Notes under the pieces: model-generated
Seen by the model: the letters and a program-made list of their open reading frames with translations, nothing else
The model's database searches: none
What the model was told of the DNA's origin: nothing
Position numbers and translations under genes: made by a program
Assembly: GCA_934101185.1 (NCBI GenBank)
Contig: CAKOQD010000002.1
Location: 11,554-75,553, forward strand
Source of the DNA: an uncultured Bacilli bacterium
Lineage (GTDB): Bacteria; Bacillota_I; Bacilli_A; RF39; UBA660
Reading direction: 5' to 3'
DNA: 64,000 nt
In this document: in pieces, positions 16,905-48,172 of the stretch
Numbering within the stretch: position 1 is the stretch's first letter
Layout of the letters: every line of letters starts with the position of its first letter

Positions 16905-16991
16905 GCCTGCGTGGCGGAATTGGTAGACGCGCTGGACTCAAAATCCAGTGGTAGCAATATCGTGTGGGTTCGAGTCCCACCGCAGGCACCA
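16905..16991 (+). tRNA. tRNA-Leu, anticodon CAA, with encoded CCA
   Basis: Hand-folded cloverleaf. Acceptor gcctgcg/cgcaggc, D-arm gcgg-aattggtaga-cgc, anticodon stem ctgga/tccag with loop ctCAAaa, long variable arm, T-arm gtggg-ttcgagt-cccac, discriminator A plus CCA. Confidence 0.9.
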
Positions 16992-17002
16992 TTGACGAAT
17001 CT

Positions 17003-17057
17003 GTTCGAACTATTCGAACTTTGATATATATAATCAATCGAAAGATTGGTTTTTTTC
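17003..17057 (+). terminator. Two stem-loops downstream of tRNA-Leu, the second with a T-run
   Basis: gttcgaa-cta-ttcgaac hairpin, then atcaatc-gaaa-gattggt followed by T7. Confidence 0.55.
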
Positions 17058-17094
17058 TGTTTTCAGGAAGAAATCATAGGAAAGGTTGGTGTCT

Positions 17095-17370
17095 ATGATT
17101 AATGTAATCAAAAAAGAAATTGATATGGAGAAATCTTTAAAGAAACGATTAGAGATTATATGTGATTTTTGTAATACTACTCCAACTATTATAAATGGTA
17201 GTATTCGTAAAATTGATAAGACAAATTTGAATTATATCGAACCACATAGAATAATTATCAATAACATAATGTTTCTTGCTTTTAATTATTCTAATGAAAT
17301 CTATATCAATAATTTAAGCAAAAAGATTAAAATATCAGAACTTGAAAACTACATAAAAACTATGAACTAA
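17095..17370 (+). CDS. Small orphan protein, island paralog family A (copy 1)
   Basis: 91 aa. RBS aggaaagg. 65 of 90 residues identical (hand alignment, no gaps) to the ORF at 19220..19492. Confidence 0.6.
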   Translation: MINVIKKEIDMEKSLKKRLEIICDFCNTTPTIINGSIRKIDKTNLNYIEPHRIIINNIMFLAFNYSNEIYINNLSKKIKISELENYIKTMN

Positions 17371-17704
17371 TACTTATTCCCTACAAATAGGTAATAGACA
17401 AAATAAGAAAAATGTTGTATTATGTAATTGATTTACAAAGACTTATTTTGAGAAGTAAAAGTATTAGTTTGTAGTACCCTTACTTCTCTTTTTTTGAAAA
17501 TTAGAAAAAGGGAGATGATAATTAATGTATGATGATGTAAAGAAGATACTTTTAACGAATTAAAAGATAAATACAATTTTAGCAAAGAACACGATGATAA
17601 AGGAAAAGATGATTTTAAGATAGAAATTTAATTAAAAATGTTGATTTTATTAAAAAAATAATGTATAATAGTAAGTCCTTAACAGATTGGGGGGGAAATT
17701 TATC

Positions 17705-19012
17705 ATGTTAAAAGAAAAAAAATCAGTGTTTTTGATTTATGATAAAAAAATAGCACCACGTTTCAATAAGTTATTATCTGAAAATTTAGAAATTGAAACT
17801 GAACTTGAAGATTATGGATGTAATAAACTTGTTTCAGTTTCGGTTGAAGATTATCAAAGAGCTTTAGAGGAAGGTCTCAACATTTCAAATCTAAATCATT
17901 GGGATATGAGTTGGGTAAATGCTTATAAAGAGCCAAGACCAGTTGGATATATTAATGTAATGTATAGTAGTTTACCAAAAACAAGAGAAGCCAGTTCTTT
18001 ATGGGAATCATTTGAATTACCTGATCATTGTCCTATTGATATTAAAGAATATATTGAGAAATTACAAGCATTTTTAGGTGGACGCCCTATAAAAATTAAA
18101 TACAATAGTTCTGATAATGCAATAGAGTTTTTAGTTAAAGGTTCATTAGAAGATTATGAACTTGTAAAACAACAATGTGAAGGATTTAATTATGTTATGA
18201 AAAATTCACCTTTTATTAAAACTACATTTTTAGAAAAAGATGGAACTTTAATTAGAACTGAAAAAGAAGAGAAAAAAGAAGAATCAAGCCTTAAATCTTA
18301 TTTTAATGAATCTATGTTTGTGGATGGTTTATTAAGACCAGAAGGTTCTAATATTGCACCAAAAACAGATACTGACCAAGATTTAACAACAGGTTATAAA
18401 TATAATAGTTGTAGATTTGGTGCTAGAGATTTTGATATCAGTTCTGTTGGGATTTATGATTTGACAGAAAGTATTCAAGGAACATTCCTTATTTATGAAG
18501 AAAAAGATTATAATCACTATTGGAATAATGAAAAAGATGAACAAACGAGTTGTAAATCAATAATGCCTTTCACTATGCTAGATAATGGTAGTTTTGAAAG
18601 TAAAGTTACTATTCAAGATGGAGAAACAGTAGTAGTAAACACAAGTGTAAATGTTATTAGAAATATAGTCGGTTGTAATTTTGATGGTAAGAGTGTAAGA
18701 GATGGATTGTTTTCTGGACTTGCACATGAAGATTGTAGAGGTAATTTTGAATTAAACGAATATTATAAAACAATTTCTAATAGAACAAGATTACTTCATT
18801 ATTCTAAATCTTCTGGTTTCTTTGAGGTGTATGAATTGCCTAATGGATGGGTTGTTGAAGATGGAATCTCAAAGTTAGAATATCCAAAGGTATTTGATGA
18901 TGTAGATTTTGATAAGCAAGATAAGGATCTAGAAGAAATTAATGGTATTTTAGCATCACGAACTAATAGCAAAATTATGTCTTTAGTTAAAAGAATTGAT
19001 AATAGCAAGTAA
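17705..19012 (+). CDS. Orphan 435-aa protein, no recognisable domain
   Basis: Long uninterrupted ORF with island-type codon usage. ATG at 17705 is 9 nt after a G7 tract that acts as the Shine-Dalgarno. Strong terminator follows. Confidence 0.7.
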   Translation: MLKEKKSVFLIYDKKIAPRFNKLLSENLEIETELEDYGCNKLVSVSVEDYQRALEEGLNISNLNHWDMSWVNAYKEPRPVGYINVMYSSLPKTREASSLWESFELPDHCPIDIKEYIEKLQAFLGGRPIKIKYNSSDNAIEFLVKGSLEDYELVKQQCEGFNYVMKNSPFIKTTFLEKDGTLIRTEKEEKKEESSLKSYFNESMFVDGLLRPEGSNIAPKTDTDQDLTTGYKYNSCRFGARDFDISSVGIYDLTESIQGTFLIYEEKDYNHYWNNEKDEQTSCKSIMPFTMLDNGSFESKVTIQDGETVVVNTSVNVIRNIVGCNFDGKSVRDGLFSGLAHEDCRGNFELNEYYKTISNRTRLLHYSKSSGFFEVYELPNGWVVEDGISKLEYPKVFDDVDFDKQDKDLEEINGILASRTNSKIMSLVKRIDNSK

Positions 19013-19032
19013 AAATTTGCTATTATTTTTTT
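19002..19032 (+). terminator. Intrinsic terminator after the 435-aa orphan
   Basis: atagcaa / ttgctat stem overlapping the stop codon, followed by a T-run. Confidence 0.7.
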
Positions 19033-19040
19033 AAATTTTA

Positions 19041-19190
19041 TGGTAATATATATTTAGTGATTGATTCTTATATCAATCGTTGCGGTAAAAAGTTGTAGAT
19101 AACTACGACAATGGCACCATTGGGAAATCTGCTCGAACTATTCGAACTTTAAATATATGAATCAATCAGAAATGATTGATTTTTTCGTTT
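19041..19190 (+). repeat. tRNA-acceptor-end-like element, copy 2 (promoter, hairpin, minihelix ending GGCACCA, hairpin, terminator)
   Basis: TGgTAATAT extended -10. gattgat-tcttat-atcaatc hairpin. gttgtag-ataa-ctacgac hairpin then aatGGCACCA (19113-19119). Downstream is alignable by eye to the region after tRNA-Leu. Confidence 0.6.
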
Positions 19191-19219
19191 CTTGAAAAAA
19201 TCATAGAAAGGATTTGTCT

Positions 19220-19492
19220 ATGGTAAATATTATTAAAGAAGAAATTGAAATTGAAGAATCTTTAGAATCGAGGTTAAGAGTAATATGTGATTTTTGTAAT
19301 ACTACTCCAACAATAATAAATGGTAGTATTAGAAGAATTGATAAAACTAATTTAACTTATATTGAACCACATAGAATATATATTAAAAACAATTTATATC
19401 TAGCATTTAATTATTCAAGTGATATATATGTTAATAATTTAGGTAAAAAGATTAAATTATCTGAATTAGAAGATTATATAAAATGTTTATAA
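19220..19492 (+). CDS. Small orphan protein, island paralog family A (copy 2)
   Basis: 90 aa. RBS agaaagga. Shares the invariant core ICDFCNTTPTIINGSIR-IDKTNL-YIEPHRI with 17095..17370. Confidence 0.6.
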   Translation: MVNIIKEEIEIEESLESRLRVICDFCNTTPTIINGSIRRIDKTNLTYIEPHRIYIKNNLYLAFNYSSDIYVNNLGKKIKLSELEDYIKCL

Positions 19493-19498
19493 AATACC

Positions 19499-19526
19499 TT
19501 GATTTTTAGAATTAATAGTATATAAT
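19499..19526 (+). promoter_or_regulatory. Sigma-A type promoter upstream of the recombinase-remnant leader
   Basis: TTGATT, 16 nt, TATAAT. Confidence 0.45.
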
Positions 19527-19575
19527 AAATAACCAATAAATGAGGAAGGTATCTTCTAGAAATGGAGGTACATCA

Positions 19576-19656
19576 ATGATAAGACAGAATATACATTTAT
19601 TAAAAATATTTATTATTGAATTAACTAGAGAGCGAGAGGTATTAGCTTGGATTTAA
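19576..19656 (+). CDS. Possible 26-aa leader peptide overlapping a terminator stem
   Basis: RBS aatggagg 7 nt before the ATG. The ORF runs into the 5' arm and loop of the 19627-19677 terminator. Confidence 0.3.
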   Translation: MIRQNIHLLKIFIIELTREREVLAWI

Positions 19657-19677
19657 TATCTTTTGCTCTCTTTTTTC
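19627..19677 (+). terminator. Strand-specific 17-bp stem-loop plus T-run (attenuator-like)
   Basis: agagagcgagaggtatt pairs fully with aatatcttttgctctct only if three G-U pairs are allowed, so as + strand RNA only. Followed by T5. Confidence 0.6.
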
Positions 19678-19699
19678 GTATTAAAAGGAGGAATATGTT

Positions 19700-20212
19700 A
19701 TGAATGAAGAAAAGAAAATAGCGGGTTTATATACGTGTATTAACGGAAGATCAGGCACGAGAAGGATTTAGTTTACCAGAACAAGAAAAGCGTTTAAGGA
19801 CTATGATGAGTTAAAAAAGAATTATAATAAACAAAGACAAAAAATAAATAAACTTAATAATCAGACAAAGGACTTAAATACAAAATCAGAAGAAATAAAA
19901 GATATTATTAATAATTTAAAAAATGAGAATTCTATATTAAAAGAAAAGAATAAAACTCTTCAAAATGAACTAAATAATCTAAAAGAATTATTTGAAAAAA
20001 TTAAAAATAAAATTAACAATCTATATCACTTCTTTGTAGATAAAATGTGGGGTAATAAAGAAAAATGTGATAAATATTATCCAGTTGCTTATGAATTATA
20101 TGGTAAGAATATTTTAGAAGAAGAACAAATAAGAGGTATATTAGGAACTAAAAATAGATTTGCAGAAATAGATAGAGATTCTAAATCAAAAGACGATGAT
20201 TTTGAATTATAA
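19700..20212 (+). pseudogene. Remnant of a large serine recombinase: frameshifted N-terminus with mutated catalytic Ser, internal deletion, C-terminal coiled-coil fragment
   Basis: Frame 0 gives MNEEKKIAG... then a stop at 19769. The +1 frame gives YIRVLTEDQAREGFSLPEQEKRLR (Y-x-R-V-S-T-x-x-Q motif with Ser replaced by Leu) then a stop at 19812. Frame 0 resumes as a start-less Asn/Lys/Leu-rich coiled-coil ending at 20212. Confidence 0.7.
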
Positions 20213-20249
20213 AAAAAGAGGAATAATATCCTCATAGTTAAATATAAGA

Positions 20250-20483
20250 TTATTCCTTAACATATCCAATGTTACTAGGTTTGCTTGGATCAAATGTTAA
20301 GTTGCAAATACTAGCAACAAGACCATAAATTCCAAAAGTAACAATTGTAAGGAAAAAATATGCTGCAGTTCTACTTCTATATCCTTCAGGTTTTAAATTA
20401 GTATGATTAATAATTATACTACCAATCCATCCTAAAAAGAATGTTAACAAAAATCTTACTACATTATTATTGTCTTTTTCCAT
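20250..20483 (-). CDS. Small two-TM membrane protein, TM2-domain-like
   Basis: 77 aa. FLLTFFLGWIGSIIINH and FFLTIVTFGIYGLVASI hydrophobic helices. Confidence 0.5.
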   Translation of the reverse strand: MEKDNNNVVRFLLTFFLGWIGSIIINHTNLKPEGYRSRTAAYFFLTIVTFGIYGLVASICNLTFDPSKPSNIGYVKE

Positions 20484-20555
20484 ATTACACTTACTCCTTC
20501 CAATTATAATTATACAATAAATTTTTATAAAAGTCTTTAATTAATGACAATTTTA

Positions 20556-20680
20556 TGATAATATTTATATAGATTGATTCATATGAATCGTTATTGCCGA
20601 AAAAAGTTGTAGACCTCTACGTCGTCGGCACCAGATTGATTGATAACTCGAACTTTTTATAGTTCGAGTTTTGATATATC
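20556..20680 (+). repeat. tRNA-acceptor-end-like element, copy 3
   Basis: TGaTAATAT extended -10. gattc-atat-gaatc hairpin. tgccga...tcggca stem enclosing the gttgtaga/tctacg hairpin and ending GGCACCA (20627-20633). Then a perfect 10-bp hairpin aactcgaact/agttcgagtt and TTTGATATAT. Confidence 0.6.
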
Positions 20681-20792
20681 TAAATTTATAATAAAATATT
20701 CATATAGATAAATTGAATTGAATCAATTTAGAAAACATACTTGCATAATGACTTAACCATTATGCAAATATATTGAAATATGGAGGAAATTT

Positions 20793-21323
20793 ATGAACGA
20801 AAAAATGTATTATTATTTATTAGAAAATAAACTATTAACGCATGGGATTGGAAATGTTAGTGACCAGGAAACATATTTTAAATTTGAATCAATAATCAAA
20901 AATGGTGGTCTAATGTCATTACAAAAATTAAAAGAATTAGGAATAAATGTATCTGGAAAAGTTAGTGGATTAAGAGATACACCTGAAAGTAGAATATCTT
21001 TTTTTAATCCATCCACCCCACAAATTAAAAAGAGATTATTATCAGAACACTTTTATTATTTTCTACCATTTAATCCTAACGTAATATTTTTTATAATTGA
21101 TGGAACAAATATTGATTTACAACAACATTCTGATATTTCTTTTGAAATAACTACAGAAAGTGGGTTTGTTTCTATTGATAATTTTAAAGGAATAATAGCT
21201 CCAAGCGAATGCATTGAATATATAAATAGTATTCAGAATAAGTATGGAATTTGTTTACCAATATATGATTTTGATTTTAATATGATGAATGATATAAATG
21301 ATAGTTTTAATAAATATAAATAA
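20793..21323 (+). CDS. Orphan 176-aa protein, possibly a distant paralog of 24904..25752
   Basis: RBS tggagga. Shares by eye the SIIKNGGL / EIVKNGLI block and the C-terminal ES-x-hydrophobic ... G-I-(I/L) block with the 282-aa ORF. Confidence 0.55.
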   Translation: MNEKMYYYLLENKLLTHGIGNVSDQETYFKFESIIKNGGLMSLQKLKELGINVSGKVSGLRDTPESRISFFNPSTPQIKKRLLSEHFYYFLPFNPNVIFFIIDGTNIDLQQHSDISFEITTESGFVSIDNFKGIIAPSECIEYINSIQNKYGICLPIYDFDFNMMNDINDSFNKYK

Positions 21324-21325
21324 TC

Positions 21326-21432
21326 AGAAGTTGTTCTACTTCTTCCTTTAGGGCACCATAGGAAAATTAGTCGAACTAATCGACTTTATATATGAAAGGT
21401 TAATCCTCGGTTAACCTTTCATATATGTTTTG
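21326..21432 (+). repeat. tRNA-acceptor-end-like element, copy 4, plus a 16-bp perfect-stem terminator
   Basis: agaagt-tgttct-acttct hairpin, tttagGGCACCA (21352-21358), agtcga-actaa-tcgact hairpin, TTATATATG, then atatatgaaaggttaa / ttaacctttcatatat stem. Confidence 0.6.
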
Positions 21433-21598
21433 AAAGAAGCTGATTAGTTATGCAAATAATAAAGGAAAAACTAGTATATATGAAACTGGTTTAATACGAA
21501 AATCTTCATATATTGCAATGGTTTTTAAAAAGAATAATAAAGAATAATATTGAAACACTAGATGAATTATTTAGATTAGACCCATTGCCATATGTAAT

Positions 21599-21627
21599 TT
21601 GCATTAAATATAAAATTGTGCTATAAT
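21599..21627 (+). promoter_or_regulatory. Sigma-A promoter with extended -10 driving the T-box leader
   Basis: TTGCAT, 17 nt, TGcTATAAT. Confidence 0.6.
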
Positions 21628-21633
21628 TTGTTC

Positions 21634-21892
21634 ATCGGCAATGACTAGGAATAGTAATTTTATAATTTATTTTAGAGAGTTATCGGTTGGTGAAAGATAA
21701 TATAAATTAAAAATGAAAGACACCTATGAGCTACTTGTTTGAAATTAATAGTAGAATAAGTCGGATGTAAACCGTTATCTCATTGAGTGATTATATATTT
21801 AATTTCTGTTTACATATATAATAAATTGGGTGGTACCGCGGATTATAACAGTTATTCGTCCCTTTGTGGATAATATAACTGTTTTTTATTAT
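21634..21892 (+). promoter_or_regulatory. T-box riboswitch leader, probable Asp (GAC) specifier
   Basis: AGAGAG bulge and GGTTGGTGAAAG distal loop in stem I. GAA-A-GAC-A in the specifier-loop position (GAC at 21719-21721). T-box sequence AATTGGGTGGTACCGCG (about 21824-21840). Terminator aacagttat...ataactgtt followed by T6. Confidence 0.8.
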
Positions 21893-21914
21893 ATATTGAA
21901 TAGGAGGAAGAAAA

Positions 21915-23228
21915 ATGAAAAAAATATATTTTAAAAATTTAAATGAATATTTTGGACAAGAAATAACTATTGAAGGTTTTGTCGATAATATTCGTGATTT
22001 ACAATATGTTCAATTTTTAATTGTTAGAGACACTACAGGTAAGGTTCAAGTAACAATTGAAAAAAACGAAAATAATAGTAAATTAAATGAAATTGTTTCT
22101 AATTTAGCAATTGAAAGCACGGTTAAAATTATTGGAACATTATTTAAAAATGAGAAAGTTAAACTTAATGGAATGGAGCTAATACCAAACGATATATTTG
22201 TAACTAGTAAATGTTTGGAGGAATTACCTTTAAACTATAAAGATAGCAAGTCCGCACTATTGGATACTAGATTAAATTATAGATTTTTAGATTTAAGAAG
22301 TGAAAAAAATATTCTTATGTTTAAAGTTCAAACTTGTATGATTAATGCTATGAGAGAATTTGTTATAAAAAATAATTTTACAGAGATCCACACTCCTAAA
22401 ATTATTAGTGTAGCAAGTGAATCTGGCGCAGAAGTTTTTGAAGTAAAATACTTTGATAGAAAAGCATATTTAGCACAAAGTCCTCAATTTTATAAACAAA
22501 TGGCTATGTGTAGTGGTTTTGAAAAGGTATTTGAAATTGCACCAGCATTCAGAGCAGAAAACTCTAATTCATATAGACACACTACAGACTTTACATCATT
22601 CGATATTGAGATGAGTTATATCGAATCTTTAGAAGAACTTATGGATTTTGAAGAAGATTTATTTATTGCGGGGTTATCCGCAGTTAAAGAAAAATATGGG
22701 GAACAAATCAAAGAATTATTTAATGTAGATGTTATTATTCCTACTAAACCATTCCCAAGAATTAAGTTAGAAGAATTATATAAGGAATTAGAAAAAGAAT
22801 ATGATTTTAAAATGAATTATGAAGATGTTGGAGATATGAATGCAGAATCAGAGAGATTAGCATCTAAGTATGTTATGGAAAAATATGGGCATGAGTTTGT
22901 ATTTATAACAGACTTTAGTGCTAAAAAAAGAGCGTTCTATCATAAGAGAGAAAAAGGTATTCCACAAGGGGCTGACCTTATTTGGAAAGGCTGTGAAACA
23001 ACTACTTTAGCATTAAGAGAACATAACTATGAAACTTTATGTGAACAAGCTAAAGAAAAGGGATTAGGAGAAGATGTTAAGTTTTATCTTGAATTCTTTA
23101 AATATGGTTGTCCCCCTCATGGAGGATTTGCTCTTGGAGTAGATAGAATAACTATGCTATTATTAGAAACAGGTTCTTTAAAAGAAACAATGTTTATATT
23201 TAGAGGTCCTAGTAGAATAGAACCATAA
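21915..23228 (+). CDS. aspS: Aspartyl-tRNA synthetase, short archaeal/eukaryal-like type (AspRS2)
   Basis: 437 aa. OB-fold N-terminus. Class IIb motifs FRAENSNSYRHTTDFTSFDIEM and PPHGGFALGVDR. C-terminal FRGPSRIEP resembles the archaeal-type FPRD-x-x-R-L-x-P tail. The T-box specifier GAC agrees. Confidence 0.8.
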   Translation: MKKIYFKNLNEYFGQEITIEGFVDNIRDLQYVQFLIVRDTTGKVQVTIEKNENNSKLNEIVSNLAIESTVKIIGTLFKNEKVKLNGMELIPNDIFVTSKCLEELPLNYKDSKSALLDTRLNYRFLDLRSEKNILMFKVQTCMINAMREFVIKNNFTEIHTPKIISVASESGAEVFEVKYFDRKAYLAQSPQFYKQMAMCSGFEKVFEIAPAFRAENSNSYRHTTDFTSFDIEMSYIESLEELMDFEEDLFIAGLSAVKEKYGEQIKELFNVDVIIPTKPFPRIKLEELYKELEKEYDFKMNYEDVGDMNAESERLASKYVMEKYGHEFVFITDFSAKKRAFYHKREKGIPQGADLIWKGCETTTLALREHNYETLCEQAKEKGLGEDVKFYLEFFKYGCPPHGGFALGVDRITMLLLETGSLKETMFIFRGPSRIEP

Positions 23229-23232
23229 AATT

Positions 23233-23254
23233 AAGGGGACAAAATCCTCTTTTT
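23233..23254 (+). terminator. Terminator after aspS
   Basis: aagggga / tcctctt stem (one G-U pair) followed by a T-run. Confidence 0.5.
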
Positions 23255-23255
23255 G

Positions 23256-23408
23256 TGTTATAATTGTATTAGTTGATAGTTATTACTAACTATTTCTTTT
23301 GCTCTAGAAGTTGTTCTACTTCTTCCATTAGAGTACCAGTTTAAAAATAAACTCGGACTTTTAAAGTTCCGAGAGTAATAAATTACTAACAGAAATGTTA
23401 GTTTTTTT
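23256..23408 (+). repeat. tRNA-acceptor-end-like element, copy 5
   Basis: TGtTATAAT extended -10. gctcta...tagagt stem enclosing agaagt-tgttct-acttct and ending AGTACCA (23332-23338). ctcgga/tccgag hairpin. ctaaca-gaaa-tgttag followed by T7. Confidence 0.6.
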
Positions 23409-23508
23409 GCTGTTTAAAAGAAAATGAAAAATTATATGTTAGCAATAGAAATAAAAATAGTAATTTATTAAGATTAATGATATGATTTAATAAACAAGGA
23501 GGTTACAA

Positions 23509-24822
23509 ATGAAAAATTTAAATAGTGAATTACTTAATAAATTTGACAATTTATATAAAAAAGATAAAAATAATAAAATAATAGAAAATGCAATTAAAAA
23601 TGTAGGTATCAATAAAGTTTGCTTAAACAATGAAATAGTTAACAAAACAATAAATATTTTTAATATAGAACTGCCAAAATCAAAAATATATAATCAAGAA
23701 GAATCAGAACGCTGTTGGATACATGCAGGTATAAATTTAATAAAAAATAATATTGCTAAAAACCTTAACATTGAAGAAAGTGAATATGCTTTATCTGTAA
23801 ACTTTTTAGCTTTTCTAGATAAGATGGAAAAATCTAATACTATTTATAACAGAATTATAGAAAATAATAATTTTAACTATGAAGAAGAAATTAAAAAAGA
23901 ATATTTAAAATTTGGTATATACGAAGGTGGATATTTTGAGTATTTTAAAGCACTAGTAAATAAATATGGAATTGTTCCAGAAAATGTTATGCCGGATGTT
24001 GAATGCAGTAAGAAATCTGAAGAATTAACCAAAATTCTTAGTGATAAAGTAAAAAAAGATATATTAAAACTAATTAAATTAAAAAAAGAAAAATGTAATA
24101 ATTTAGACGTTATAAAAGAAGAAATGCTAACAGAAAACTATAATATGTTAGCAAAATGTTTAGGAGAGCTACCTTTTAATTTTGATTATGAATATAAAAC
24201 TAAAGATGGAAAATATAAAAAAATCACTAATATAACTCCTAAAGAATTCTCAAACAATTATCTCACTATTAACTTAAATGATTTTATTGGTGTTGCTAAT
24301 GTACCAATGTACAACAAAGAATATAATAAGCTATATAGAAAAGAGCATACTGAAAATGTATATGAAAATAGTTATGTTGAATTCATTAATTTACCAATTG
24401 AAAATTTAAAAGATTTAGCGATTAAACAATTAAAAGATGGGGTTCCTGTATGCTTAGGTTGTGATATGAAAAAAATGCGAGCAGATAAATTAGGAATAAT
24501 GGATTCTAATTTATACAATTATAAAGATACATTTAATATTGAGCTATTATCCAAAGAAGAAGCATTATCCATACATGATATCGATTTTCAACATGTAATG
24601 TTAATTACTGGAGTTCATATTGAAGATGACAAAGCAGTTAGATGGAAAATTGAAGACAGTTATGGTGATAAAGTTCATAAAGATGGTTATTATATAATGA
24701 ATGATAACTTCTTTGATGATTTTGTAATAGAAGTCATAATTGATAAGAAACACTTAAGCCAAGATCAATTAGATATATTAAGCCAAGATCCAATTTTATT
24801 TGATGTAACTGAACCATTCTAA
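23509..24822 (+). CDS. pepC: Aminopeptidase C (C1B bleomycin-hydrolase family cysteine peptidase)
   Basis: 437 aa. Active-site context QEESERCWIHAGINL and a conserved C-terminal region. Confidence 0.8.
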   Translation: MKNLNSELLNKFDNLYKKDKNNKIIENAIKNVGINKVCLNNEIVNKTINIFNIELPKSKIYNQEESERCWIHAGINLIKNNIAKNLNIEESEYALSVNFLAFLDKMEKSNTIYNRIIENNNFNYEEEIKKEYLKFGIYEGGYFEYFKALVNKYGIVPENVMPDVECSKKSEELTKILSDKVKKDILKLIKLKKEKCNNLDVIKEEMLTENYNMLAKCLGELPFNFDYEYKTKDGKYKKITNITPKEFSNNYLTINLNDFIGVANVPMYNKEYNKLYRKEHTENVYENSYVEFINLPIENLKDLAIKQLKDGVPVCLGCDMKKMRADKLGIMDSNLYNYKDTFNIELLSKEEALSIHDIDFQHVMLITGVHIEDDKAVRWKIEDSYGDKVHKDGYYIMNDNFFDDFVIEVIIDKKHLSQDQLDILSQDPILFDVTEPF

Positions 24823-24903
24823 CAAAAAACTTAGTAAAGAACATTACCATTTAACACTAAAAATAAAAATGATATAATAGTTGCAAGATGTAGGAGGCTA
24901 ATT

Positions 24904-25752
24904 ATGAATAAAAATGATTACATAGAAATAACAGAAGAAAAATTAAAAGACAATTCTAAAAAGATTATGATAAATCAAATAAATAAATATTACAAATCAA
25001 AAGAATATGTAAATCCCAAATGTAAATATTCTGTTGGAGACAATGTAGTTTTAAAAAAAGGAACATTATTACATGGAACATATAAAAATATTGATGGATT
25101 AAAAGAAATTGTAAAGAATGGATTAATATCAAGTTGGTTTATAAATGATAGATTATCAAAATATCCAAGTTCTGTTGGTGTATGGAAATTAAAAAAAGAT
25201 TCCTTACTAAAAGACTATATAAATTTTTATTCTGGAGGCACTATTTTATATAGTGGTATTATTGAAAATGGTATAGACACACAAAAAAATAAGACCTCAG
25301 TTATTCCATATGATGAAATGCATAATATTATTGATATTACAAGCAGTATTAATTGTCATATGTGGACTCTAGAACAAACAAAAGAAGCAAGATTTATGCC
25401 TAGTTTTGTTCAAGATAGAATTCAAATAGGTATTATATTTAATGGAGACAATAACTACACAAAAGAATTACTGAAGGGCGACATATTAGAACCTGATTTT
25501 ATTGATGATGAAAATGTTAAGAATTTCGTTAATTCAAATTACTACGACAAATTTTTAAAAGATAGAAAAAACAAAGACGATTTCTTTACTGATCGAGAAA
25601 GTGCTATTTTATTTGGGTTACCATCGAACTTAATCGAAGGAATACTAGTTGGAAGAATATATGAAAAAGATGACTTAATTTTAAAAGAAATAAAAGAATT
25701 ATTACCAAAATGTTATATATGTAACCTAGATGGAAAAATAATAAAAGAATAA
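24904..25752 (+). CDS. Orphan 282-aa protein with weak ADP-ribosyltransferase-like motifs
   Basis: RBS taggaggc. LLHGTYKNIDGLKEIVKNGLIS near the N-terminal third and DRESAILFGLPSNLIEGILVG near the C-terminus. No firm family assignment. Confidence 0.55.
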   Translation: MNKNDYIEITEEKLKDNSKKIMINQINKYYKSKEYVNPKCKYSVGDNVVLKKGTLLHGTYKNIDGLKEIVKNGLISSWFINDRLSKYPSSVGVWKLKKDSLLKDYINFYSGGTILYSGIIENGIDTQKNKTSVIPYDEMHNIIDITSSINCHMWTLEQTKEARFMPSFVQDRIQIGIIFNGDNNYTKELLKGDILEPDFIDDENVKNFVNSNYYDKFLKDRKNKDDFFTDRESAILFGLPSNLIEGILVGRIYEKDDLILKEIKELLPKCYICNLDGKIIKE

Positions 25753-25789
25753 AAAACGTAAGATATGGAATTTTTTAGATGGTGATAAA

Positions 25790-26350
25790 ATGAAAAAACA
25801 TGTAAAAGTAATGTTTGGAACAACAAGCGGTGCAAAAAACAATTTTAATTATAAAATAGGTGAAGTAAATATCAGTGATAATTGGAATCCTAATGCTAGT
25901 ACTGGAAAAGAATTTGGAGGTTTTAATTATTGTAGTGAAGACTGTATTTTAAGATGGTTGCACAGGGGAGATACTATATATGATGTAGAAATTCCTAAAG
26001 ATGCTGAAAACATTAAAATAGAAGGTGCTACAACACTCTATAGAACTAATAAAATCATTATACAAAATCCAAAAAAGATAGATGATGAGTTAGCACTTCA
26101 TTTCTATAAAATATCAAAAATACCAGAAAAATCCTATTATATATCACTAGCAGTTGTCTCACTAATGAACTACAAAAAAACTGCATATCAGATATTGAAA
26201 GATAAAGTTAACAAAGAAAATATTGATTCAGTACTAGAAGATTGGAACGATTTTATGTGGCACAAAGGTAAAAATGATAGAAGAAATAAAAATGAACTAA
26301 TAAAAAAAATAGAAGATGAGTTATATAAAATAAAAAACATTAAGCTATAA
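25790..26350 (+). CDS. Orphan 186-aa protein
   Basis: RBS gatggtga. The block GGFNYCSEDCILRWLHRGDTIYDVEIP resembles a domain common in phage and island hypothetical proteins. Function unknown. Confidence 0.55.
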   Translation: MKKHVKVMFGTTSGAKNNFNYKIGEVNISDNWNPNASTGKEFGGFNYCSEDCILRWLHRGDTIYDVEIPKDAENIKIEGATTLYRTNKIIIQNPKKIDDELALHFYKISKIPEKSYYISLAVVSLMNYKKTAYQILKDKVNKENIDSVLEDWNDFMWHKGKNDRRNKNELIKKIEDELYKIKNIKL

Positions 26351-26603
26351 AAAATTAATAAAAATAAAAAAGACAATATAAAATCATCTTTTTTTACACA
26401 AATATACTTACAAACATCTATTGTTTTTATATTATTAGTCATTAACTTTTAACTAAGTATATACAAATTAAATCTAAAAATATCACTAAAAATCATAAAA
26501 ATATTCAATGAATTTATATCTTTCTTGTCTTTGTACCTAACACAAAAAGCAACTATTAACATTAAAAGAATAACATGATATAATGAAAACGGAGGAAACG
26601 ATT

Positions 26604-27188
26604 ATGATTATAGGTATATGTGGTAATTCCGGAAGTGGCAAGACTACTTTAGCCAATCAAATAATAAAATCAACAGACAATAAAGCAATACATCTAGAAA
26701 TAGATAAAATTGGTCATAAAGTTTTATTGCTTCCTGAAGTAAAAAAAGAATTGATAAAACTATATGGAAACAAAATACTAAGTGAAAGCGATATCGATAG
26801 AAAAAAACTAAGCACAATAGTTTTTGATTCTAAAATAGAAATGGATAAACTAACTGATATTACATGGAAATATATGCAAATAGAAATTGACAACTTTCTA
26901 GAAAATAATAAAAATAAAATAGTAATCTTAGATTGGATGTTATTATCAAAATCAAAATATTTTGACATGTGTGATATAAAAATACTTTTAAATACACCAT
27001 ACGATATAAGAAAAAGAAGAGCAACAAGAAGAGATAACATAAGTGAAGAATCATTTAACTTAAGAGATCAGGCTAGTATAACTTACAATGAAGAGAACTT
27101 TGATTATGTTTTAAAAACTAATGAAATTGACAAGAAAAAGCTAGTAAAGTCTCTGTACAAAAGTCGAAAACAAAGGAAAAATAAATGA
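26604..27188 (+). CDS. coaE: Dephospho-CoA kinase-like P-loop kinase
   Basis: IIGICGNSGSGKTTLA P-loop. The layout after it resembles CoaE (IDRKKLSTIVFDS). ATG at 26604 follows the RBS ggagg. Confidence 0.6.
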   Translation: MIIGICGNSGSGKTTLANQIIKSTDNKAIHLEIDKIGHKVLLLPEVKKELIKLYGNKILSESDIDRKKLSTIVFDSKIEMDKLTDITWKYMQIEIDNFLENNKNKIVILDWMLLSKSKYFDMCDIKILLNTPYDIRKRRATRRDNISEESFNLRDQASITYNEENFDYVLKTNEIDKKKLVKSLYKSRKQRKNK

Positions 27189-46250: not shown

Positions 46251-48172
46251 TAAAAAATATAAAATACCTACTATTTTTAGGACTATTTCTAATTCCATTA
46301 AATACAAATGCTGCATCAAGTAGTGTATCACTAAGCTGTCCATCAACTGCAAACCCAGGAAATACCATAAGTTGCAACATATCAATGAAAACAACCGGAG
46401 CAGTAGCAAATGGAATATCATTAAAATATGATTTCACAAGTGGCTTATCATACGATAGCTTTACCCCATCATCATCATTTACACCACTAAAAAGTACTGC
46501 AACTGGCTTTGCACTAAATGGTTCTGGTGGAGTACCATCATCAGTATCAATCGGAACTTTAAGAGTAAAAATATCAAACTCAGTTAATGGAGGTCAAAGT
46601 TATAAAGTAACACTTAAATCAATAGACGTATCAACATATGATTCATCCACAAATAATTATGACGATTTATATCCGAACGATGCAACAGCGCAAATAAGAA
46701 TAAAATCATCAAACAACAATTTATCAAGCTTATCAGTATCAGGACATGAAATAAACTTCAATAAAAACACAACAACATATACATTAGAAACAACATCATC
46801 AAAAGTAACAGTAAGTGCAACAAAAGAAGATTCATATGCTACTATATCTGGTACAGGAACAAAAAGCTTATCATATGGACTAAACACAATCAAAGTAGTA
46901 GTAACATCAGAAACAGGATCAAAGAAAACATACACAATAAACATAACAAGAAAAGATACTAGATCAGATGATGCAAAACTATCATCATTAACAGTAAGTA
47001 ATGCTAATATAAACTTTACACCTAATCAAACAATATATAATACATCAGTTGGATCAAGTATATCAAAAGTACAAATATCAGCTAAAACAAACAATGATAA
47101 AGCAACATTTACAACAGGATATGGTCCAAGAACAGTAAACCTATCATATGGACAAAATACATTCAAACTAATAGTAAAAAGTGAAAAAGGTAACACTAGA
47201 ACATATACAATAAATATAACGAGAAAAGATACTAGATCATCAAATAACAATCTATCAAGTCTATCAGTATCAGTAGGCAAAATAAATTTCAATAAAAATA
47301 CAACAACATATAACATAGATACTAAAAACGATGTAACTAGTGCAACTATAAGTGCAACACTTGAAGATCAAAAATCAACATTTGTAAGTGGATACGCTCC
47401 AAGAACAGTTTCTTTAAAAGAAGGATTCAACTCTTTCCAAATAAAAGTTAAAAATGAAAAAGGCACTATTAAAACATACACAATAAACATAACAAGAGAA
47501 GACGGAAAAAGTAGAAACAATAATCTAAAAGACTTAACACTTAGCACTGGTAATATAACATTTGATAAAAATAATTTAAATTATAACGTAACAGTAGAAT
47601 ATGAAATAGAAAAACTAACAATAAATGCAACACCTGAAGATCAAAAAGCAAAAGTTACATATCAAAAAGAAAATACCTTAAAAGTTGGAGAAAACAAAAT
47701 AACAATAACAGTCGAAGCAGAAAATAAAAGTACTAAAAACTATACAATAACAGTAACTAGAAAAGAAGAAGGGAAAAAACTATCAAACGTAAGCAGTCTA
47801 TCATCATTATACATTGATGGAAAACAAATAACTCTAAATGAAAATCAAACAGAGTATACATACCAAACAACACAAACAGCAGCAAACGTAAAAGCAACTC
47901 CTACAGATCCTAATGCAAACATCACAATAATAGGAAACAATAGTATAAAAGATGATAGTATAATACAAGTAATAGTAACAGCAGAAGATCAATCAACAAC
48001 AATATATAAAATAAAAATAGAAAAAAAAGAAGATAAAAACAACACTTTGTTAATAATATTAATTCCAACTATAATAATAGTTATTGGTATAATAACATTT
48101 GCAATAATAACAAAAAACAAAAATAAAACAAAAGAAATAGACGCAAATCTATTAAACTTAAATAGGAAATAG
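46247..48172 (+). CDS. Membrane-anchored surface protein: N-terminal cohesin-like domain, five cadherin-like beta-sandwich repeats, C-terminal TM anchor
   Basis: Signal peptide. About 140-aa beta-domain (GNTISCNISMKTTGAVANGISLKYDF...GTLRVKISN). Repeats start LSSLSVS/LSSLTVS and end YTINITR. C-terminal LLIILIPTIIIVIGIITFAII. ATGA overlap with the upstream gene. Confidence 0.7.
   Translation: MIKNIKYLLFLGLFLIPLNTNAASSSVSLSCPSTANPGNTISCNISMKTTGAVANGISLKYDFTSGLSYDSFTPSSSFTPLKSTATGFALNGSGGVPSSVSIGTLRVKISNSVNGGQSYKVTLKSIDVSTYDSSTNNYDDLYPNDATAQIRIKSSNNNLSSLSVSGHEINFNKNTTTYTLETTSSKVTVSATKEDSYATISGTGTKSLSYGLNTIKVVVTSETGSKKTYTINITRKDTRSDDAKLSSLTVSNANINFTPNQTIYNTSVGSSISKVQISAKTNNDKATFTTGYGPRTVNLSYGQNTFKLIVKSEKGNTRTYTINITRKDTRSSNNNLSSLSVSVGKINFNKNTTTYNIDTKNDVTSATISATLEDQKSTFVSGYAPRTVSLKEGFNSFQIKVKNEKGTIKTYTINITREDGKSRNNNLKDLTLSTGNITFDKNNLNYNVTVEYEIEKLTINATPEDQKAKVTYQKENTLKVGENKITITVEAENKSTKNYTITVTRKEEGKKLSNVSSLSSLYIDGKQITLNENQTEYTYQTTQTAANVKATPTDPNANITIIGNNSIKDDSIIQVIVTAEDQSTTIYKIKIEKKEDKNNTLLIILIPTIIIVIGIITFAIITKNKNKTKEIDANLLNLNRK
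46715..48030 (+). repeat. Five tandem in-frame coding repeats of about 270 nt (cadherin-like modules)
   Basis: Recurring ...LSSLSVSxxxINFNKNTTTY...KTYTINITRKDTRS units. DNA blocks such as tacacaataaacataacaagaaaagatactagatca recur with few changes. Confidence 0.65.

Follow-up and report, generated by a model that had tools for sequence, protein, structure and literature searches.

The window analysed here is a stretch of 64,000 nucleotides (nt) from an uncultured gut Bacilli bacterium (GenBank assembly GCA_934101185.1, designated G000; 1,000,547 bp, 27% G+C). Two near-identical repeats (copies 4 and 5) flank aspS2, a T-box-controlled gene for an extra aspartyl-tRNA synthetase (AspRS). These repeats are most probably attachment-site arms of a family of elements that encode large serine recombinases (LSRs), with the aspS2 unit as one unit of an accretion stack behind a tRNA gene. 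The comparison set consists of 151 genomes of this gut Bacilli family (150 besides G000 for the homologue and core scans), and all results are based on the sequence of assembled bins. Arm types are designated A and B, and left-end types T1, T2 and T3.

The near-identical core described in an earlier note on this DNA is real: AGAAGTTGTTCTACTTCTTCC is found at 21326-21346 and at 23306-23326, both on the forward strand, with 21 nt identical. No match was obtained in 100 dinucleotide shuffles, and the whole 1.0-Mb assembly contains no exact copy besides these two. The alignable arm is 33 nt long with three substitutions (21326-21358 and 23306-23338), and each copy closes on CCA. Such arms exist in two forms: a full form with a TGnTAnnnT motif, a hairpin and an upstream strand, and a short form in which the approximately 33-nt arm comes straight behind the stop codon of a cargo gene. 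Copy 5 is a full arm. Copy 4 is a short arm which, as the note had observed, starts 2 nt past the stop codon of the preceding open reading frame (ORF; 20793-21323, stop codon TAA) and lacks a 5' pairing strand; it also lacks an upstream hairpin, whereas copy 5 has both features at 23276-23306. Short arms directly behind a cargo stop codon are found in seven other genomes.

The note had also proposed that the repeats bracket exactly a promoter, T-box, aspS and terminator unit, as direct repeats bounding a single-gene cassette. A promoter-like site, the T-box, aspS2 and a terminator-like hairpin do all lie inside the interval, but so do a conserved left end with a strong hairpin (21359-21426) and the upstream module of copy 5, and "exactly" is thus too strong. 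Likewise, the region is built of cassette-like units delimited by repeats that resemble tRNA ends, and similar single-gene units are found behind tRNA and tmRNA (transfer-messenger RNA) genes in other genera, but copies 4 and 5 are not the direct repeats of one cassette. The preceding unit, which encodes ORF176, has copy 4 as its right end, and the aspS2 unit ends on the right with copy 5; the two copies did not originate in a duplication made by aspS2. At other loci, the same arm is the end of units with unrelated cargo and of complete elements that carry a recombinase.

Evidence for this assignment comes from the B arm at other loci. With up to two mismatches, the 21-mer is found in 14 of 150 other genera, compared to a single match for the reversed control, and 18 genuine metagenome loci carry it. 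These other loci are junctions of the same kind; the core was not found scattered over unrelated loci without cassette-like behaviour. In metagenome contigs L206, L207 and L213, the exact 21-mer closes elements with an LSR and a relaxase-like gene. The L213 element starts with GATTGAT directly after the CCA of tRNA-Thr(CGT), which identifies T2 as the left end of the B-arm subfamily. Arm copies with identical interior flanks are continued by at least six different following sequences, with the break always at CCA. One element type is located behind tRNA-Leu(GAG) in G168 and behind a B arm in L213, and the homology between the two (86.7% over 2.3 kb) starts at CACCA. Given these breaks and the location of one element after either a tRNA or a B arm, the arm behaves as the equivalent of a tRNA end at insertion junctions.

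An intact element is found in G005. In G000, the tmRNA gene is directly followed by its own trailer and then by tRNA-Thr, forming an empty site. G005 has a 6.1-kb insert between the tmRNA CCA and the native tmRNA trailer. Its left junction reads CACCA followed by TTGACGAATCTG and its right junction reads CACCA, the end of an A arm, followed by TTATGTTAATT; the sequence common to both junction sites is CACCATT. The insert encodes a 93-aa homologue of window proteins ORF94 and ORF92, a 638-aa LSR, a Mob_Pre relaxase and a DUF4116 protein. The LSR has the domains PF00239 (Resolvase; E-value: 1.2e-34) and PF07508 (Recombinase; E-value: 5e-18) and a weak match to PF13408 (Zn-ribbon), while the relaxase has the domain PF01076 (Mob_Pre; E-value: 8.9e-14).

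Homologues of this LSR are encoded in 64 of the 151 family genomes. At 22 of the 29 LSR loci read, a tRNA or tmRNA ends exactly at a CCA that is followed by the left end, and three more have an arm/left-end junction in place of the tRNA. The RNA gene is upstream, and its CCA lies roughly 0.5-1 kb from the LSR reading frame. Eleven RNA targets were recorded (Phe-GAA, tmRNA, Leu-CAA, Leu-TAG, Leu-GAG, Thr-CGT, Thr-GGT, Gly-GCC, Gly-TCC, Cys-GCA and His-GTG), and LSRs that are closely related (at least 73% identical) can be found beside six different RNA genes. An A or B arm in the same orientation, mostly 2-7 kb downstream, accompanies at least 13 LSR genes, and the A arm is present in 43 of the 151 genomes. 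The base preceding CCA (N73) is A, T or C depending on the target, so the shared crossover is confined essentially to CCA, in which the two-base crossover would lie. A crossover upstream of the acceptor 3' strand was rejected: N73 varies, and one element follows different acceptor strands with homology only from CACCA onwards. A 5-bp shift between attP and attB motifs, as described for the A118 integrase (PMC3783163), was considered: by eye, the distance from CCA is 4-5 bp greater for the AGTTGT of the arm than for the GTTCGA of the T-loop, a similarity too weak to claim.

In the window, copies 4 and 5 belong to a 9.6-kb stack of five units (16992 to approximately 26565) behind tRNA-Leu(CAA). 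This anchor gene (16905-16991, plus strand) was identified by ARAGORN and matches the Rfam tRNA model with 63 bits. The first insertion junction, between 16991 and 16992, immediately follows its CCA, and it is precisely past this CCA that the sequences of G003, G005 and G006 diverge. In G005, whose flanks are 95-97% identical to those of G000 at the nucleotide level, tRNA-Leu is joined to coaE through 118 nt and the sequence corresponding to 16992-26565 is absent. Copies 4 and 5 are the two B-type arms of a co-oriented series that begins with the real tRNA end and continues with two A-type arms (core AAGTTGTAGAnnnCTACGnC), whose last positions are 19119 and 20633. Each CCA in this series leads into a related trailer, with TCGAAC approximately 14 nt in, and a terminator-like hairpin. 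The T1, T2 and T3 left ends and the A and B arms of the units match the ends of LSR-bearing elements; units 1, 3 and 4 have these ends and no recombinase or transfer genes.

Unit 1 (16992-19119, plus strand) has a T1-type left end (16992-17019) identical in type to that of LSR elements in relatives, followed by a terminator-like hairpin (17032-17056). It encodes ORF94 (17086-17370), which shows 72.5% identity to the first gene of the intact G005 element, and ORF441 (17687-19012), and closes with TGGTAATAT (19041-19049), a hairpin (19059-19078) and an A-type arm (19090-19119) ending in GGCACCA. Unit 2 (19120-20633, plus strand) is a decayed copy of the G005 element. Following a T1 left end (19120-19147) and ORF92 (19214-19492), it retains remnants of the LSR (19725-19805) and the relaxase (19793-20158), which in tblastn searches with the G005 proteins match LSR residues 10-36 (92.6% identity) and Mob residues 259-315 (79.7% identity); approximately 3.9 kb have been deleted between them. 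A DUF4234 ORF (20250-20483, minus strand; Pfam) precedes the right end, which comprises TGATAATAT (20556-20564), a hairpin (20572-20589) and an A-type arm (20604-20633).

Unit 3 (20634-21358, plus strand) has a T2-type left end (20634-20668), as does the B-arm LSR element of L213, and encodes the orphan ORF176 (20793-21323), for which no homologue was found among 150 family genomes; it is closed by copy 4 (21326-21358), a short B-type arm. The aspS2 unit, unit 4 (21359-23338, plus strand), starts with a T3-type left end (21359-21384) and a strong hairpin (21388-21426). T3-like left ends come after a tRNA CCA in the LSR loci L200 and L201. The promoter-like sequence TGCTATAAT (21619-21627), an Asp T-box (21632-21866), aspS2 (21915-23228) and a terminator-like hairpin (23233-23254) are followed by the right end, consisting of TGTTATAAT (23256-23264), a hairpin (23276-23293), the 5' pairing strand (23301-23306) and the B-type arm that is copy 5 (23306-23338). 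A full B right end of this kind closes the LSR elements in L206, L207 and L213. Unit 5 (23339-26565, plus strand) is a tail with a T2-like left end (23339-23373), a terminator (23383-23408) and genes for a pepC-like C1 peptidase (23509-24822; Pfam), ORF282 and ORF186. It has no right arm, and in comparison with G005 the inserted sequence stops near 26565, ahead of coaE (26583-27188); unit 5 has lost its right end.

Presence and absence of units vary between genomes. G003, G005, G006 and G083 have different units behind the same tRNA, and G003 has a 1.66-kb unit bounded by CCA on both sides where the trailer of G006 directly follows the tRNA. Recombinase-less arrays with the same arms and mostly single genes are found behind the same scpB-tRNA-Leu(CAA) site in G083 and behind tmRNA in G109 and G048. 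In G000 itself, the T1 trailer is also located behind tRNA-Gly(TCC) and tRNA-Gly(GCC) and the T2 trailer behind tRNA-Thr(GGT), each of these three sites being at a contig end or at most about 300 nt from one.

Several further features of the island and its surroundings were recorded. The cargo ORFs at 17687-19012, 20793-21323 and 24904-26350 (441, 176, 282 and 186 aa) are orphans, with no family in Pfam, PHROGs, NCBIfam or PADLOC except for weak sub-threshold matches of ORF282 (PF23669, E-value: 0.0029, below the Pfam cut-off; phrog_9614, E-value: 0.00055). The approximately 93-aa protein with a CDFCNTTP motif (17086-17370, 19214-19492; also L030) is always the first gene past T1, immediately ahead of the recombinase gene; it matches nothing in Pfam, PHROGs or NCBIfam and is a candidate directionality factor or regulator. 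The T1 left end (16992-17019, 19120-19147) contains TTCGAAC twice. This is the palindromic core of the T-loop (GTTCGAA), and its distance from CCA is about that of the T-loop on the other side of CCA; TTCGAAC may be a recombinase recognition motif. In G005 (L020) and G004 (L022), the acceptor stem of tRNA-Leu(CAA) contains a C6 x A67 mismatch, with a 5' strand like that of G000 and a 3' strand like that of G003, a mismatch that a crossover in CCA would not produce. Four G000 contig ends are element junctions: the start of C2 (tRNA-Gly(TCC)/T1) and the ends of C1 (tRNA-Thr/T2), C18 (tRNA-Gly(GCC)/T1) and C5 (an A arm). The G000 assembly thus breaks in these repeats, with element copies possibly absent from it. 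Elsewhere in the window, 46700-47500 contains three tandem copies of a 273-nt unit (70-72% identical) within a coding region, which probably encodes a repeat-domain surface protein.

The mechanism proposed for these elements can be outlined as follows. The elements would be small, integrative and mobilizable, and copies 4 and 5 would form the element-side halves (P arms) of their attachment sites. When complete, an element would begin with a left end (T1, T2 or T3, with TCGAAC approximately 14 nt in) that supplies the upstream RNA gene with a new trailer and terminator, continue with a small conserved ORF and the LSR and then with the Mob_Pre relaxase and cargo, and finish with a right end made up of an extended -10-like motif, a hairpin and an approximately 33-nt arm ending in GC(A/T)CCA. 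The LSR, as the presumed acting enzyme, would carry out strand exchange in or at the CCA that ends a tRNA, a tmRNA or the arm of an earlier element. With strand exchange at CCA, the tRNA would stay intact and each insertion would remake a CCA-ended junction that is open to more insertion. If elements were inserted repeatedly and then lost their recombinase and relaxase genes, accretion would produce a stack of recombinase-less units, and these could presumably still move. The segment from 16992 to approximately 26565 would be such a stack, in which copy 4 ends the ORF176 unit and copy 5 ends a unit with T-box-controlled aspS2 as its cargo.

The aspS2 gene itself provides the means of judging an alternative in which the aspS2 unit would be a mobile cassette complete in itself, with the two cores as direct repeats of its own that arose as a target duplication or represent its two att copies. 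The T-box matches RF00230 with 145.7 bits (threshold 93), and its specifier, read from the position followed by A, is most likely GAC. The product is a 437-aa class II AspRS that scores as an archaeal-type non-discriminating AspRS (NF003483; 446.9 bits, cut-off 353). It is an extra gene, as G000 also has a normal 594-aa aspS and asnS; contigs C7, C2 and C14 encode a bacterial AspRS, an asparaginyl-tRNA synthetase and GatB beside this archaeal-type "aspartate--tRNA(Asn) ligase" under an Asp T-box. Candidate roles for aspS2 are a back-up function, inhibitor resistance or a route to Asn-tRNA. Among six congeners, only G003 (L019) has aspS2. G000 and G003 share 95.8% identity in the segment 21596-23274, which comprises the promoter, T-box, gene and terminator, while the two genomes are 80.5% identical in aspS, 85.2% in asnS and 82-85.6% in the flanks. 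This excess over housekeeping DNA (80-86%) indicates recent lateral exchange of the aspS2 module.

A self-contained cassette would agree with this exchange, with the 21 exact bases shared by two cores that bracket a complete expression unit and with the same arrangement in metagenome contig L224. However, the exchanged segment lies inside the bracket and excludes both arms: the 1.68-kb module of G003 has no arms and retains just the first approximately 26 nt of the upstream module of copy 5, which suggests that G003 aspS2 formerly adjoined a full B end too. The search proposed in the earlier note, for an aspS2 cassette bounded by the same core in other genomes, found none. No arm was found within 4 kb of aspS2 at 11 further loci (orthologues 73-93% identical, in 11 bins and varied contexts) or within 1.5 kb at 11 loci in sampled relatives. 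In addition, copy 4 abuts the ORF176 stop codon in the manner of the short arms that close unrelated genes, and the arm closes LSR elements that have no aspS2. The absence of arms at aspS2 loci elsewhere indicates that the arms belong to the element family and not to aspS2, and the self-contained cassette is accordingly an unlikely explanation.

A second alternative is that the repeats are primarily RNA elements, either a small promoter-driven structured RNA with a tRNA-like NCCA tail or merely a terminator or processing module, which would be reused from gene to gene and have no role in recombination. The signals that favour it lie upstream of the arm. The extended -10-like motif TGnTAnnnT is found 30-70 nt upstream in 39 of 59 distinct copies, compared to 9% of random windows, and a hairpin follows in several sequence versions. 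A single-sequence promoter scan is uninformative in this AT-rich DNA (48 matches against 49.5 in shuffles), and the promoter claim is drawn wholly from the comparative signal. In 19 full B-type copies, the closing 6-bp stem is 84% paired with both-sided changes at four of the six pairs. This pairing exceeds that of shuffled and slid controls and, as the structure was derived from the same sequences, is moderate evidence that the stem is kept, probably as a lineage-specific feature of B-type copies. When A and B copies are pooled there is no excess of self-pairing (4.2 of 6) over cross-pairing (4.0 of 6), and RNAalifold finds no structure in mixed A/B copies, in which the alignment register differs by type. 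No ARAGORN or Rfam match to the arms was found (Rfam E-values up to 5).

Related RNA candidates were rejected. A tRNA acceptor-like minihelix pairs well in copies 3 and 5, yet the pooled copies show no excess and no tRNA model matches. A tRNA gene, pseudogene or acceptor-T minihelix does not fit the geometry, since the inner hairpin abuts the 5' strand and not the 3' strand; the sole tRNA-like part is the GCACCA tail. A loose structural descriptor gave 61 matches across the genome, mostly spurious. A purely RNA-based explanation also has to contend with breaks between genomes that fall exactly at CCA, with the ties between arms and LSR elements, and with short forms that are still located at junctions although they have no promoter, hairpin or 5' strand. 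It is thus improbable, slightly more so than the self-contained cassette. An outward-facing promoter with a structured transcript across the junction is plausible, and an RNA role could exist besides the attachment role.

Least probable is an integron-like or Xer-like tyrosine-recombinase system with the cores as attC- or dif-like sites: tandem single-gene units each closed by a structured repeat would suit it, but the single tyrosine recombinase of G000 (PF00589, 301 aa, contig C22) is unlinked to the array, the arm AAGTTGTTCTAC...GCACCA has no GTTRRRY integron core, aspS2 has its own promoter and T-box, and the linked enzyme in relatives is an LSR.

Several observations weigh against the reading of copies 4 and 5 as LSR attachment arms. 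No match to the Recombinase domain (PF07508) was found in the G000 assembly, and without such a domain the units in this genome may be fixed; contigs break inside element copies, however, so G000 may have a recombinase that was not assembled. As described above, aspS2 has moved between lineages without arms. The island has no clean site at its right border near 26565, no clear dyad symmetry is visible by eye in the P and P' arms, and every genome compared is a metagenome bin. To our knowledge, canonical serine integrases do not target attL or attR, so tandem junctions would need relaxed site choice, composite transfer or homologous exchange.

A more far-reaching interpretation, which is possible but doubtful, is that the arrays are a working, integron-like platform for gene capture run by LSRs, and that the conserved outward promoter and the hairpins at each right end make a structured RNA that crosses the junction. 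If so, the approximately 33-nt CCA-ending arm would be a surrogate tRNA 3' end, and an enzyme acting in trans could insert elements or cassettes behind almost any tRNA, tmRNA or earlier cassette. Junction RNA could then report or control the integration state, or serve in the conversion of single-stranded DNA after mobilisation. The reading of the arrays as accretion stacks would in itself explain how uncultured gut Bacilli with genomes of approximately 1 Mb acquire and exchange individual accessory genes, such as the T-box-controlled gene for a second AspRS, at the ends of tRNA and tmRNA genes. In annotation, unit borders can be recognised by the arms, which also account for contig breaks in these bins, and recombinases with predictable, ubiquitous landing sites would be of practical interest.

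The elements share features with several known systems. The mobilizable transposons Tn4451 and Tn4453 of clostridia encode the LSR TnpX and the Mob/Pre-type protein TnpZ. The likeness is one of gene set, an LSR and a Mob_Pre relaxase on an element of approximately 6 kb; tRNA ends are not the target of Tn4451, which is not known to form stacks of cassettes. In composite islands of the staphylococcal cassette chromosome (SCC), the CcrAB serine recombinases act at the 3' end of rlmH, and serine-recombinase elements are similarly arranged in tandem at one site, some units having no recombinase. SCC differs in that its target is the end of a protein gene, it is much larger and two recombinases are needed. 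Integrons are likewise arrays in which most cassettes have a single, often orphan gene and every cassette is closed by a conserved structured site, but they depend on the tyrosine recombinase IntI, folded attC sites and a common promoter, none of which is present here.

The ssrA-specific islands of Dehalococcoides, in which the gene for the serine recombinase DsiB adjoins attL (McMurdie et al. 2011, PMC3146451), are likewise inserted at the 3' part of a small stable-RNA gene and form tandem islands; integration modules are missing from many of them, and each repeat is preceded by a conserved motif on the element side. These islands have a single target, ssrA, insert inside the T-loop and have a 20-bp direct repeat, whereas the present elements use at least 11 RNA genes, break at CCA, have a shared sequence of no more than 7 nt and encode a Mob_Pre relaxase as well. 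Accretion of integrative mobilizable elements (IMEs) and cis-mobilizable elements in Firmicutes (Pavlovic 2004, Bellanger 2011, reviewed in PMC5704250) resembles the proposed mechanism in its order of events: elements insert site-specifically, decay to units that have lost the recombinase but retain att sites, and are joined by further insertions alongside, forming tandem arrays. The tRNA-end cases in that review involve tyrosine integrases and longer repeats, and the serine-recombinase IMEs covered there, as of 2017, integrate within protein genes. No description of the present element family was found in the literature searched. The break at CCA, the wide range of RNA targets of related enzymes and the small, often single-gene units differ from the systems of PMC5704250 and PMC3146451, and point to serine recombinases whose crossover is apparently in the universal CCA, unlike the published IMEs that disrupt protein genes.

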